From a virus (Duplodnaviria > Heunggongvirae > Uroviricota > Caudoviricetes): a stretch of 11,878 nucleotides of DNA. Numbering within the stretch: position 1 is the stretch's first letter; each line of letters begins with the position of its first letter. Where the stretch lies: the IMG/VR virus record IMGVR_UViG_2654587726_000023. One strand, written 5' to 3'. Both the position numbers and the translations under genes were made by a program. This document shows, piece by piece, positions 1 through 10,247 of the stretch. The notes below the pieces were generated by a model. The model had not been told where the DNA came from and ran no database searches. It was given only the letters and a program-made list of their open reading frames with translations.

Positions 1-2
1 CG

Positions 3-116
3 GGGATGCTGGAAAAGGGGAACGACCGCCGTTACAAGAAAAAGGCGCTCAGCAAAATTGGGGGGAAGCAGCATGTTTTTTACGTGCTGATGTTCCAGCC
101 TGAGGCAGAAGATTAA
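3..116 (+). CDS. 3-prime end of upstream CDS running off the window (possibly C-terminus of the island replication initiator/primase)
   Basis: Open frame from window edge to TAA at 114-116 (…KIGGKQHVFYVLMFQPEAED*); immediately followed by iteron array. Frame choice is uncertain because all three frames are open for most of this short stretch. Confidence 0.3.
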   Translation, partial: GMLEKGNDRRYKKKALSKIGGKQHVFYVLMFQPEAED

Positions 117-139
117 CCCCCTGTGTGATGTAAAAAGTT

Positions 140-262
140 GCGGGTTATGCGGGTTATCCTGTGTATAAGTGCATTAACTGTATGAATAAAAAGGAAATCA
201 ATAACCCGCACGTAACCCGCAAAACGGCAGTTATAACCCGCAAAAGTGCGATTATAACCCGC
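140..262. repeat. Iteron array 1: 2 abutting copies of GCGGGTTAT (140-157), a ~43 bp AT-rich spacer, then 4 copies of (A/G)TAACCCGC at 201, 212, 233, 254; putative replication origin
   Basis: Direct reading of the sequence; 9-mer in inverted orientation flanking an AT-rich core, with 21-bp spacing between later copies. Confidence 0.6.
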
Positions 263-326
263 AGAATTTCACCGTAAGGGTGTAAACAAGCGTAACCATC
301 AACGTTAAAACCGGAGAGCAGACAGC

Positions 327-752
327 ATGACAGCACAGATAGCGGCTTACGGGCGGCTGGTGGCTGACCCGCAGTTAAAGACCACCAGCAAAGGGACACA
401 AATGGCGATGGCGAGTATGGCGGTTCCCCTGCCATGCAGCCAGGCAGATGACGGAACGGCGACGATGTGGTTATCTGTCCTGGCGTTTGGCAGACAGGCC
501 GACGCACTGGCAAAACACCACAAAGGCGAACTGGTGAGCGTGGCGGGTAACATGCAGGTGAGCCAGTGGACAGGCCAGAACGGGGAAACGCAGCGGGGCT
601 GGCAGGTTATTGCAGACAGCGTAATCAGTGCGCGAACGGCGCGACCGGGCGGCAAAAAAGGTCAACAGGGCCAGGCCACTGACGCACTGAACAGGGCAAA
701 ACAACAGACAAGCCAGCACGATGACCCGTACGGGGATAACATACCGTTTTAA
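327..752 (+). CDS. ssb: Single-stranded DNA-binding protein (SSB) family protein
   Basis: 141 aa; OB-fold-like pattern (…WLSVLAFGRQADALAKHHKGELVSVAGNMQVSQWTGQNGETQRGWQV…) resembling E. coli SSB core, Gly/Gln-rich linker and C-terminal acidic tip …DDPYGDNIPF matching the SSB DDDIPF tail; GGAG RBS at 313-316. Confidence 0.7.
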   Translation: MTAQIAAYGRLVADPQLKTTSKGTQMAMASMAVPLPCSQADDGTATMWLSVLAFGRQADALAKHHKGELVSVAGNMQVSQWTGQNGETQRGWQVIADSVISARTARPGGKKGQQGQATDALNRAKQQTSQHDDPYGDNIPF

Positions 753-788
753 TTCACAACAGCGAACAGAGTAATTACGGGGGAAGGC

Positions 789-1319
789 ATGACAACGCTG
801 ACCATTAACCGGAAGCCGAAAGGCATTTACGGCACGCCGCAGAAAACGACGCAGGCGGCACAAGAGCAGGATAAAACCACATCGGCGCATAAAGTGATAC
901 CCGGCAATCAGAACGCACAGCAGAAGCCCACAGGGGCGACACCGTGGCAGCATATGACCAAAAGGCAGCGCAAAAACCGCCGACGCGTTAACCGCCTCAC
1001 TGAGATGTGGCCTGACTTATTCAGCCATAAAGCACCGAAGCCGCTTAAGGTGGGGATATTCGACGACCTGATGCAGGATATCGCCGTCAGGAGGCTGGCA
1101 TTCGGGCCGGGGGTATTACGTGCGACGCTGGCATCCTATGCGCAGTCTCCGCGCTATTACCGCGCCCTGATAGCTGGTGGCGCACGTTACGACCTGAAAG
1201 GCCAGCCATGTGGGGAAGTGACACCACAGGAACAGCAGGAGGCAGAAACACGGCTGATGGTGCTGAATGAGAAGCACAAGCGCCAGCGCCGGGCAGCAAA
1301 GGGGGATACATGCCAGTGA
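789..1319 (+). CDS. ProQ/FinO-domain RNA-binding protein
   Basis: 176 aa; basic N-terminal region (KRQRKNRRRVNRL) followed by PLKVGIFDDLMQDIA…LRATLASYAQSPRYYRALIAGGARYDLKGQPCGEVTPQEQ, closely resembling the ProQ/FinO domain core (PLKIGIFQDL…LRLYTSSWRYL…RVDLDGNPCGEL); strong RBS GGGGGAAGG before ATG 789. Confidence 0.65.
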   Translation: MTTLTINRKPKGIYGTPQKTTQAAQEQDKTTSAHKVIPGNQNAQQKPTGATPWQHMTKRQRKNRRRVNRLTEMWPDLFSHKAPKPLKVGIFDDLMQDIAVRRLAFGPGVLRATLASYAQSPRYYRALIAGGARYDLKGQPCGEVTPQEQQEAETRLMVLNEKHKRQRRAAKGDTCQ

Positions 1320-1558
1320 CATTTGAAGAAGTTCAGCAACATAAAAAGCTGCATGGTTTTGATGATCTGGAAACCACGACAGCAAAAAAATATCGTCGGT
1401 TGCTTTCTTCCGATGCGTTATTTTTTGTGGATCATCATGATTTTCTGCGTAGCTCACTGACCGGGGAAATTTTCGCAACCAACCGTGAGCAGGTGGAAGC
1501 GATGATCGAATATTTGTGGAAAATAAGACGCAGAATGCGGGAGCCAGTGAAACAATAA
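1310..1558 (+). CDS. Hypothetical small protein (82 aa), translationally coupled to upstream gene
   Basis: ATG 1310 overlaps stop of previous CDS (1317-1319), RBS AGGGGGA upstream; followed by intrinsic terminator; no recognisable family. Confidence 0.5.
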   Translation: MPVTFEEVQQHKKLHGFDDLETTTAKKYRRLLSSDALFFVDHHDFLRSSLTGEIFATNREQVEAMIEYLWKIRRRMREPVKQ

Positions 1559-1569
1559 AGCGATAAAGG

Positions 1570-1595
1570 CCCGGATTTTTTCCGGGTCTTTTTTC
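1570..1595 (+). terminator. Rho-independent terminator after ssb/proQ-like/orf82 operon
   Basis: Hairpin CCCGGA-ttttt-TCCGGG followed by TCTTTTTT. Confidence 0.7.
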
Positions 1596-1611
1596 AGGTT
1601 TTGTAAATTAT

Positions 1612-1761
1612 TTGTTCGTGGTTGTTCCAGGTTGTTCGGTGATTCTGGTTGATGTTTACATACTGATTTTTATGTATATGTTGGCGTGTGGCACTCAGAC
1701 GTGAGCCGCCACAATGCCGCCTGACCCCCTGCGCGATGCCGGGTTGATCTGCGAGATGCCG
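1612..1761 (+). promoter_or_regulatory. Putative regulatory region upstream of the capsid gene: TTGTTC x3 at 10-bp phasing (1612, 1622, 1632), interrupted palindrome TGTGGC-N15-GCCACA (1687-1713), ATGCCG x3 at ~21-bp spacing (1714, 1736, 1756)
   Basis: Direct reading; helically phased short repeats in the 235 bp intergenic region before the morphogenesis genes. Confidence 0.4.
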
Positions 1762-1832
1762 AGAGTGTCGGGCGGCGCTCCCCCCCGTGTTGGTTTCACG
1801 TCCTGAATCTTAACCAATGCGAGAAAACCTTC

Positions 1833-8222: not shown

Positions 8223-8373
8223 GTGTGGTGCATGGTCAAAATGACCACGGAGAAGATACGCACCGAAGCAGAACAATTACCGTAGGTTAAAGCGACAGTA
8301 TTCACACCAGCAACCTGATTATCAATTTTCAGCCGTTCGGTGGCATCACTGGCCCCATTTTCCTGATGGGGTT

Positions 8374-8526
8374 GCGGGTTATTTGGGGGGGATTTGCGGG
8401 TTATTTTGAATGTCTCGCGGGTTACGCTTTGGCTAATATTCAAACGCATCATTTTTTAACTCATTGATATTAAAGAATAAAAAATACTTAGCAAGCGAAG
8501 ATAACCCGCTAACCCGCATAACCCGC
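8374..8526. repeat. Iteron array 2: 3 copies of GCGGGTTA(T/C) at 8374, 8396, 8417 (about 21-bp spacing), ~75 bp AT-rich spacer, then 3 abutting copies of (A)TAACCCGC at 8501-8526; same 9-mer as array 1
   Basis: Direct reading; same inverted-iteron-flanking-AT-core architecture as 140-262. Confidence 0.6.
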
Positions 8527-8879
8527 ACTGTTTTGTATATATATATACGAAAAATTGCATTCAGGAGGTGGGATCGAAATCCCTACAACCCATTGCTTAT
8601 GGGACTGCCCGCCCCGTCAAATTTTTACACCCGCGAAAAATACTTCAAGCTGGTGGGCATGATGCCGATATGGGGATCCCCATGTCGACATTAACGCCCC
8701 TCATGAATTGGCGTGCTTCCCCCTGGAAAGATGACCCGCCTGTATATTTCTTGTGTCTATTTGTTCCACGTTGTTTCATACAGTGCACCGAACGGTGTAG
8801 TTACTGGTGTAGTCATTTTGCGATTTTTAAAGTTATCTAAGATATTATTTGTCGCTTAAATTCAATTAGTTATGAGTAT

Positions 8880-10247
8880 TTGATTATAAATAGCGGATAT
8901 GAATATCCGGCGAAAAAAATCACCATCAACCTTGCTCCAGCCGATCTGCCAAAAGAAGGGGGACGATATGATTTGCCTATCGCTATTGCGTTACTGGCGG
9001 CCTCAGAACAGCTTACAGCCAATAAGTTAGATGAATATGAATTAGTCGGAGAACTGGCGCTTACAGGCGCTCTGCGTGGCGTTCCCGGCGCAATCTCCAG
9101 TGCAACTGAAGCTATTAAGTCGGGCAGAAAAATTATCGTCGCGAAAGATAACGAAGATGAAGTGGGGCTAATTAACGGTGAAGGATGCCTGATAGCCGAT
9201 CATCTGCAGGCTGTCTGCGCGTTTCTGGAAGGTAAGCACGCTCTCGAACACCCGAAACCAACTAATGCAGTATCCCGGGCGCTACAACATGATCTCAGTG
9301 ATGTTGTCGGTCAGGAGCAAGGAAAGCGAGGACTGGAAATTACCGCCGCTGGCGGGCACAACCTTTTACTGATTGGACCGCCGGGAACAGGTAAAACAAT
9401 GCTCGCCAGCCGTATTAATGGCCTTTTGCCAGATTTAAGCAATGAAGAGGCACTGGAGAGCGCTGCGATATTAAGTCTGGTAAATGCTGAATCAGTACAA
9501 AAACAATGGCGGCAGCGCCCGTTCCGCTCACCTCATCACAGTGCGTCGTTAACTGCGATGGTGGGCGGTGGTGCAATTCCAGGGCCAGGTGAAATTTCGC
9601 TGGCGCATAACGGCGTGCTTTTTCTTGATGAGCTACCTGAATTTGAACGGCGTACACTGGATGCCTTGCGAGAGCCGATTGAATCCGGGCAGATCCATCT
9701 TTCACGCACACGAGCAAAAATAACCTATCCAGCCCGTTTCCAGCTTGTCGCGGCAATGAATCCCAGCCCTACCGGACATTATCAGGGAAACCATAACCGC
9801 TGCACACCAGAACAGACATTACGTTATCTCAACCGGCTCTCGGGGCCCTTTCTCGACCGCTTCGATCTCTCACTGGAGATCCCATTACCGCCCCCCGGCA
9901 TTTTGAGTAAAACGGTAGTGCCGGGAGAAAACAGCACCACCGTTAAACAACGTGTAATGGCCGCCAGAGAGCGCCAATTTAAGCGGCAGAATAAACTGAA
10001 CGCCTGGCTGGATAATCCGGAAATACGCCAATTCTGCAAGCTTGAAAGCGAAGATGCGCAGTGGCTGGAAGAAACGCTGATCCATCTGGGGTTATCGATT
10101 CGTGCCTGGCAGCGGTTATTGAAAGTTGCACGAACCATTGCTGATATTGATCAGTCTGACATTATCACACGTCAGCATTTGCAGGAGGCAGTTAGCTATC
10201 GTGCGATTGACCGTTTGCTCATCCATCTGCAAAAACTACTGACATAA
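8880..10247 (+). CDS. comM: ComM (YifB) Mg-chelatase-like AAA+ competence protein, 5-prime truncated by island insertion
   Basis: 455 aa frame beginning IINSGYEYPAKKITINLAPADLPKEGGRYDLPIAIALL…, Walker A GPPGTGKT; corresponds to E. coli YifB from about residue 51 onward as I recall it; upstream in-frame sequence diverges and hits a stop at 8838-8840; only a TTG at 8880 with no RBS. Confidence 0.85.
   Translation: MIINSGYEYPAKKITINLAPADLPKEGGRYDLPIAIALLAASEQLTANKLDEYELVGELALTGALRGVPGAISSATEAIKSGRKIIVAKDNEDEVGLINGEGCLIADHLQAVCAFLEGKHALEHPKPTNAVSRALQHDLSDVVGQEQGKRGLEITAAGGHNLLLIGPPGTGKTMLASRINGLLPDLSNEEALESAAILSLVNAESVQKQWRQRPFRSPHHSASLTAMVGGGAIPGPGEISLAHNGVLFLDELPEFERRTLDALREPIESGQIHLSRTRAKITYPARFQLVAAMNPSPTGHYQGNHNRCTPEQTLRYLNRLSGPFLDRFDLSLEIPLPPPGILSKTVVPGENSTTVKQRVMAARERQFKRQNKLNAWLDNPEIRQFCKLESEDAQWLEETLIHLGLSIRAWQRLLKVARTIADIDQSDIITRQHLQEAVSYRAIDRLLIHLQKLLT

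Follow-up and report, generated by a model that had tools for sequence, protein, structure and literature searches.

What a phage satellite keeps between its replication origin and its capsid genes, and whether the genes found there work together as one unit, is the question raised by the viral record IMGVR_UViG_2654587726_000023 (Caudoviricetes). The stretch analysed herein, 11,878 nucleotides in length and referred to as the window, carries between positions 327 and 1558 three co-oriented open reading frames (ORFs), encoding a single-stranded DNA-binding protein (SSB), a protein of the ProQ/FinO family (the FinO-domain protein; gene proQ) and a protein of 82 amino acids (aa; ORF3). The original prediction took the three for an accessory operon. 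The genes are indeed real, adjacent and carried by a satellite, but they do not form a coherent functional unit of their own, because they occur in many combinations and assort independently among islands. The reading we favour, with some reserve, is that the early (replication) transcription unit of a capsid-forming phage-inducible chromosomal island (cf-PICI) reaches its far end in this region, which is occupied by three independently assorting cassettes.

The assortment was followed in 5426 complete Escherichia coli genomes, using megablast for the whole block together with separate counts for each gene. The block was partly present in 1488 genomes, and at least 80% of it in only 44. Counted gene by gene, DNA matches were found in 1806 genomes for the SSB lineage (coverage of at least 80% in 1082), in 1095 for the FinO-like gene (385 at this coverage) and in 135 for the 82-aa gene (all 135 at this coverage), essentially all of them chromosomal. 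SSB and ORF3 are annotated without ProQ in the SMS-3-5 cf-PICI, and the other combinations include SSB alone, ProQ plus PerC without SSB, SSB plus ProQ plus PerC, and SSB-PerC-ORF3-like in the island EcCIEDL933.

Two sets of loci were compared. The ProQ-bearing set was collected by local tblastn from 80 loci fetched from IMG/VR, the annotated E. coli loci and the window, and the start of ProQ could be placed in 80 loci. The 3′ neighbour of ProQ in these 80 was PerC (49 loci), ORF3 (17) or another ORF (10), and in 4 loci PerC lay 5′ of ProQ; a detectable capsid gene stands alongside in 16 of the 17 ProQ-ORF3 loci, which are thus cf-PICIs, the remaining contig being too short. In classical PICIs without capsid genes, the FinO-like gene almost always adjoins a gene for a PerC-family regulator (53 of the 80 ProQ-bearing loci, for example L003, 9011-9826, and L004, 9462-10279). 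The second set was independent of ProQ, consisting of 56 cf-PICI loci with enough upstream sequence that were fetched via a 17-mer conserved 5′ of the capsid genes; it included the ORF3 family in 37, SSB in 31, PerC in 22 and ProQ in 5. The FinO-like gene, carried by 5 of 56 cf-PICIs, is an optional regulatory cassette. ProQ and PerC were found together in none of the 56 sampled cf-PICIs. PerC was also compared with the PDB for its possible identity with the packaging factor Rpp, giving no match, and the literature on PerC, PICIs and Rpp was uninformative on this point.

The element itself was identified as a cf-PICI from annotated gene content and from similarity to EcCIEDL933. Several E. coli strains carry the region in their chromosomal DNA at 99.5% identity; megablast against the phage collection gave no match. 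In strain 2014EL-1345-2 the island (L001), of about 15 kb, splits the yifB/comM gene and has one half of it on either side; its 5′ part carries int, alpA, an icd-like gene, a DUF4222 gene and pri-rep for a DUF927 primase-helicase, followed by the genes for SSB, ProQ, ORF3, capsid, protease, portal, connector and HNH, and by terS and terL. It thus combines int, alpA and pri-rep with its own capsid-to-terL set, has no tail or lysis genes and is similar in size to EcCIEDL933 (15.4 kb).

EcCIEDL933, the prototype cf-PICI (Alqurainy et al., bioRxiv 10.1101/2022.09.08.507074), shares the gene order from int through terL with small genes after the origin, the identity to the island studied here being 93% for TerL, 74% for the major capsid protein and 68% for SSB. 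Ahead of its capsid gene stands the order SSB-PerC-ORF3-like, the last gene being 40% identical to the 82-aa gene, so that in EcCIEDL933 a PerC-family gene is present and a FinO-domain gene absent, whereas our island shows the reverse. The two also differ in integration site (the pepT/roxA-phoQ region versus yifB/comM), but have in common the capsid-upstream 17-mer and TTGTTC repeats. The SSB, ProQ and ORF3 genes are not discussed in the EcCIEDL933 paper, and the cf-PICI papers make no mention of ProQ/FinO-like genes; such genes appear, by annotation only, among the accessory genes listed for a PICI of Enterobacter and for cf-PICI-like plasmids of Vibrio (PMC13612085, PMC13230959). RefSeq already labels our three genes as 'single-stranded DNA-binding protein', 'ProQ/FINO family protein' and 'hypothetical protein'. 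The SSB and FinO-domain genes are further members of known families that had been annotated beforehand, and the 82-aa protein is an orphan family. A scan of genome contigs with a single-protein query returned one locus only.

A crude consensus scan of positions 1-326, including the interval from pri-rep to the SSB gene, found neither a sigma-70-like promoter nor a plus-strand terminator. It is therefore probable that an AlpA-dependent early operon ends with these three genes, which would be read from it as far as position 1594. Early transcripts would stop at the terminator located there, and the capsid operon would then start from its own promoter and structured leader. Within such a unit, as judged from family and position, SSB would most likely coat the single-stranded DNA exposed when the DUF927 primase-helicase opens the adjacent iteron origin, its IPF tail linking that DNA to host proteins of the replisome and of repair. 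The FinO-domain protein, with a basic and probably disordered N-terminal extension, would most likely bind one RNA or a few, at the hairpin and the 3′ U-tail, and such binding would protect these RNAs or aid their pairing, leading to post-transcriptional control of island genes and possibly of helper or host genes. The 82-aa gene would have been inherited with the capsid/packaging module, and joined to the ProQ cassette by the chance of mosaic assembly.

Several observations weigh against this reading. Given the crudeness of the scan, an internal promoter in the origin region is possible; the samples of loci include many near-identical islands, the counts being descriptive and not independent; and 25 of the 56 cf-PICIs carry no SSB of their own, so that SSB is auxiliary at most and not essential. 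As to an RNA partner of the FinO-domain protein, no candidate emerged that co-varies with ProQ: an Rfam search of the window and the whole island (E<=1) gave only tRNAs and chance matches. In 10 other ProQ-bearing islands, isrK plus C4 was found in 3 and the int-alpA motif in 3, indicating that known RNAs do not track the FinO-like gene. Synonymous-site conservation among 56 distinct ProQ-like genes showed mild dips only (codons 13-33, 45-57 and 113-125), unconvincing as a sign of an embedded RNA.

The coordinates of all the features are collected in the table below. In its description of the individual genes the original prediction proved correct: the profile searches detected both OB-fold and FinO-domain homology above the Pfam cut-offs, the SSB ends with the canonical DNIPF tip, the genes are located between the satellite origin and the capsid genes, and the small ORF is coupled to proQ, its ATG overlapping the proQ stop by 10 nt (ATGCCAGTGA). 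A Shine-Dalgarno-like purine run precedes each ORF, GGAGAG for the one at 327, GGGGGAAGG for the one at 789 and AAGGGGGA for the one at 1310.

Table. Features of the cf-PICI region. Positions refer to the window unless L001, the island locus of strain 2014EL-1345-2, is named.
Feature	Position	Strand	Basis and remarks
DUF927 primase-helicase (pri-rep), 3′ end	1-116	+	full gene at L001 9993-12116 (annotation); tblastn agrees
Replication origin, iteron type	139-263	.	TAACCCGCA x6: 2 inverted and 4 direct copies around AT-rich spacer 158-200
SSB of PICI lineage, 141 aa	327-752	+	family matches; OB fold, linker of about 40 aa, tip DDPYGDNIPF
SSB-ProQ spacer, 36 nt, with ProQ ribosome-binding site	753-788	+	near-identical across most SSB-ProQ islands; L004 deviates
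FinO-domain protein, 176 aa	789-1319	+	PF04352 and PDB matches; NCBIfam scores; family alignment
cf-PICI-specific 82-aa protein (ORF3), PHROG 1957	1310-1558	+	family search, predicted fold, co-occurrence with capsid module
Intrinsic terminator, end of early operon	1565-1594	+	hairpin 1565-1591 plus U-tract; dG -19.4 kcal/mol, z = -4.4
Capsid-operon control region	1599-1832	+	kept in 21 diverged cf-PICIs; capsid gene begins at 1833
yifB/comM (Mg-chelatase-like AAA ATPase), split by island	L001 5677-5850 and 20881-22245; window ORF 8880-10247		window ORF is the C-terminal part

The FinO-domain protein matched Pfam PF04352 over 104 of 109 profile positions (residues 64-168; E=6.2e-24, 84.5 bits against a cut-off of 27), and its sequence matched the PDB entries of the E. 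coli ProQ N-terminal domain (5nb9, 7e-12), FinO (1dvo, 9e-11), NMB1681 and RocC. In the family alignment the N-terminus (MTxLTINRKPKGIY) is conserved, the Q/T-rich linker that follows it varies, and the basic patch KRQRKNRRR (residues 58-66) is again conserved; then comes the FinO domain, after which there is a short basic tail and no Tudor domain of the ProQ type. In HMMER alignment R111, Y123 and R133 correspond to an Arg/Tyr/Arg set of E. coli ProQ, R58, Y70 and R80, of which Y70 and R80 contact the 3′ end of the RNA; conservation in the family alignment reaches at least 90% at Y123 and R133, and most members retain R111. The scores fell below the NCBIfam cut-offs for both FinO (NF010317, 64.2 against 136) and ProQ (NF003434, 59 against 127), and by sequence the protein is a separate lineage of the ProQ/FinO family.

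The closest parallels in layout are FinO of F-like plasmids and FopA/PcnR of the IncI plasmid pCol1B9, each of which likewise combines basic extensions with one FinO domain and is carried by a mobile element; the Arg and Tyr used for recognition of RNA 3′ ends are retained in the satellite protein as aligned. Plasmid FinO is, however, only about 35% identical, within the domain, and the satellite protein has its own conserved N-terminus. FinO and FopA are encoded on plasmids, whereas the gene studied here is located on a phage satellite in which no antisense RNA equivalent to FinP or Inc was detected. With E. coli ProQ the protein has the FinO-type domain in common but lacks the linker and the C-terminal Tudor-like domain, its FinO domain being at the C-terminal end; and ProQ is a core global regulator, whereas the satellite gene is an accessory on a mobile island.

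Such likeness raises the alternative that the FinO-domain protein regulates copy number or replication in the style of FopA/PcnR, stabilising an antisense RNA of the island that limits the translation of pri-rep or another early gene. The gene always follows directly after the origin or a replication gene, the iterons abutting its ribosome-binding site in islands without SSB, and FopA is comparable by description, with an N-terminal extension that carries two basic stretches and with none of the extra domains of FinO or ProQ (PMC7491321). The full island also has, on the minus strand, a unit that runs antisense to the early operon and carries a strong terminator (L001, promoter-like site 8683-8655, terminator 8123-8103). 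This unit is, however, present also in islands without ProQ (L002), no antisense promoter/terminator pair above chance was found near pri-rep, ssb or proQ, and the low identity to plasmid FinO-family proteins stands likewise against the idea, making a regulator of this type rather unlikely.

Some further observations concern the islands related to this gene. The minus-strand unit of L001 (8683-8100) consists of the promoter-like site, a gene of the YlcI/YnfO family and the terminator GGCGACC...GGTCGCC with a T-rich tail, and is a possible source of a cis-antisense RNA. Some related PICIs carry, above the Rfam gathering scores, isrK and C4-type immunity RNAs (L004 5697-5885, L046 4185-4370, L058 2732-2917) or the int-alpA RNA motif (L003 2054-2121, L046 868-935, L075 904-971), none of which is present in our island. 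Of the ProQ-like alleles P0064 is the commonest, being indexed in 4005 blocks of the contig collection; it is found in the PICIs L007-L012, around 8479-16498, where SSB-ProQ is followed by three large genes, for proteins of about 840, 690 and 920 aa in which no Pfam domain is recognised, and these genes may constitute a defence system.

The 82-aa protein was assigned to PHROG 1957 (E=4e-36), and an exhaustive HMMER search collected 54 cluster representatives of its family at E<=1e-3. Conserved are Y28, D41, A56 and Q61 together with the motifs VDHH (40-43) and ATNxEQ (56-61). A confident AlphaFold model built on the family alignment (pLDDT 93) shows the topology alpha-alpha-beta-beta-beta-alpha, and this predicted fold had no match in PDB or BFVD; at the sequence level there was no PDB match, no Pfam match for any of 37 family members and no match by tblastn in the phage collection. 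Nothing pointed to kinship with PerC (hhalign probability to PICI PerC 0.7%, in addition to the Pfam-negative members). Homologues with 40-46% identity stand before the capsid operon also in islands that have neither SSB nor ProQ (L005, and L094 with the 46% copy, located between the replication gene and the capsid operon). The small ORF had been regarded as a partner of ProQ; since it goes with the capsid module, whether ProQ is there or not, this view is not supported, the 82-aa gene belongs with the capsid module, and its translational coupling to proQ is a by-product of cassette joining. Our best guess is that the protein is a small adaptor or regulator for the early-to-late transition or for capsid production.

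These results bear directly on the proposal that the three genes make up a dedicated accessory or interference operon, in which the SSB tail hijacks replication proteins of host or helper, while helper transcripts are the target of the FinO-like protein and its small coupled partner, to the benefit of the island. The post-origin slot is variable and holds accessory genes in PICIs, the SSB has an intact tip, there is the 10-nt overlap of proQ with ORF3, and SSB is specific to satellites, with at most 31% identity to sequenced phages. The independent assortment, the association of ORF3 with the capsid module and not with ProQ, the absence of any PADLOC match for the three proteins and the frequency of SSB in the replication zone of such islands all argue against it, and we regard such an operon as unlikely. 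The region is better described as a series of cassettes at the end of the early unit.

The terminator at the end of this unit had been put forward as a ligand of the FinO type. Its GC-rich stem, U-tail and 5′ A-tract, which pairs with the U-tail to make an 11-bp stem, are features of ProQ-type ligands. A review notes that most FinO/ProQ ligands are bound through terminator hairpins (PMC9977716). One might hence suppose that the FinO-like protein acts in cis, binding the hairpin at 1565-1594 and stabilising the early-operon mRNA, all the more as nearly all ProQ-containing clusters end in a similar terminator. The same terminator, however, is kept with compensatory C:G to U:A changes also in islands without ProQ, where it follows ORF3 (L002 and L005), and terminators of such type are generic. 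Being conserved with or without ProQ, it is not a specific ProQ ligand, and we consider the action in cis very unlikely; the terminator instead marks the end of the early operon. On the minus strand, terminator-like sites within ssb and proQ (683-661, 729-708 and 981-964) were rejected, as they showed no excess over shuffled sequence and had no promoter.

The SSB was recognised by Pfam PF00436 (E=1.1e-15; score 58 bits, cut-off 26), NCBIfam TIGR00621 (score 58.9, cut-off 53.95) and PHROG 44 (E=4e-38). Like E. coli SSB and the SSBs of plasmids and phages, it has an OB fold, a disordered linker, a C-terminal D-x-IPF tip and, as aligned, apparently three of the four stacking aromatics, but it is much shorter than E. 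coli SSB, its 40-aa linker lacks the Gly/Gln richness of the E. coli type, and the tip reads DNIPF instead of DDDIPF. When aligned to the E. coli sequence (UniProt P0AGE0), W54, F60 and W88 correspond to W48, F54 and W81 of the satellite protein, W40 is replaced by Gln, and H55 at the tetramer interface by Leu. The two proteins are distant (24.6 bits). The tip variants across islands (such as GDGIPF, EDNIPF and RDEIPF) retain IPF, where partner proteins would dock. No relative among sequenced-phage SSBs exceeds 31% identity, the best matches being in Gram-positive phages, and on this comparison the SSB is a lineage specific to satellites.

Far from lying outside the usual satellite toolkit, as had been supposed, the SSB is a routine gene of the replication zone of PICI-type islands, as indicated by its frequency in E. 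coli genomes (1806 of 5426) and cf-PICIs (31 of 56) and by its place in the 'Replication' class of a survey of Gram-negative PICIs, which groups SSB with primase and DUF5906 genes on the ground of co-localisation with mapped origins (PMC10111431). The most economical reading is that it supports island replication at the adjoining origin. The idea that it serves primarily as a decoy or shield against host defences sensing phage SSB or single-stranded DNA, or as a competitor for host SSB-interacting proteins, draws on the divergence of the lineage (E. coli SSB scores only 24.6 bits, and neither W40 nor H55 is kept) and on the nearly half of cf-PICIs that manage without SSB, but is most improbable in view of the fixed location beside origin and primase, the three apparently retained aromatics and the IPF tip, and the lack of a defence-related neighbour or PADLOC match.

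The origin next to the SSB gene is marked by the iteron 9-mer TAACCCGCA, of which the whole window holds 10 exact copies against 0.08 expected. Near the right end of the island a second, origin-like cluster (8373-8527) is arranged like the first, with copies on the minus strand at 8373 and 8395 and on the plus strand at 8510 and 8519 and a near-copy at 8502, on either side of an AT-rich stretch at 8440-8500; it might be a second origin or a site of copy control by handcuffing. Just 3′ of the last plus-strand gene of the island, five exact copies of GTGAC with a strict 10-nt period (8126, 8136, 8146, 8156 and 8166) look like a protein-binding array.

Downstream of the early terminator, the capsid-operon control region begins with an invariant 17-mer (1599-1615) and three copies of TTGTTC at 10-nt spacing, on one face of the helix (1612-1637), after which come a promoter-like site at 1655-1682 and, from 1688 to 1802, a structured leader. 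The leader contains an invariant hairpin, GTGGCACTCAGACGTGAGCCGCCAC (1688-1712), an invariant box around 1788-1802 that is able to pair with this first hairpin, and between them a long hairpin (1716-1776 here), the arms of which are wholly different between islands and yet complementary. It matched no Rfam family. The leader is present with or without ProQ, and its function therefore cannot require ProQ; it appears as the clearest candidate for control at the RNA level in cf-PICIs.

Among the major families of bacterial RNA chaperones, the FinO-domain proteins are understood least. Of those characterised on mobile elements, FinO and FopA, each acts via one antisense RNA to control the spread or the copy number of the element that encodes it. 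To our knowledge, control in the conflict between PICI satellites and their helpers has so far been described at the protein level only. It is a speculative and rather doubtful proposal that the FinO-domain protein defines a lineage of RNA chaperones peculiar to satellites, found in some 7-20% of complete E. coli genomes, which would act with RNA of island, helper or host and thereby time the satellite life cycle or sabotage helper gene expression, and that, separately, the 82-aa protein is a factor of new fold for satellite capsid production or the early-to-late switch. The satellite FinO lineage, matched at the DNA level in roughly one in five complete E. coli genomes, is a third lineage and would be an obvious place to seek RNA-based control between satellite and helper, and the 82-aa family provides a concrete candidate gene specific to capsid-forming satellites.

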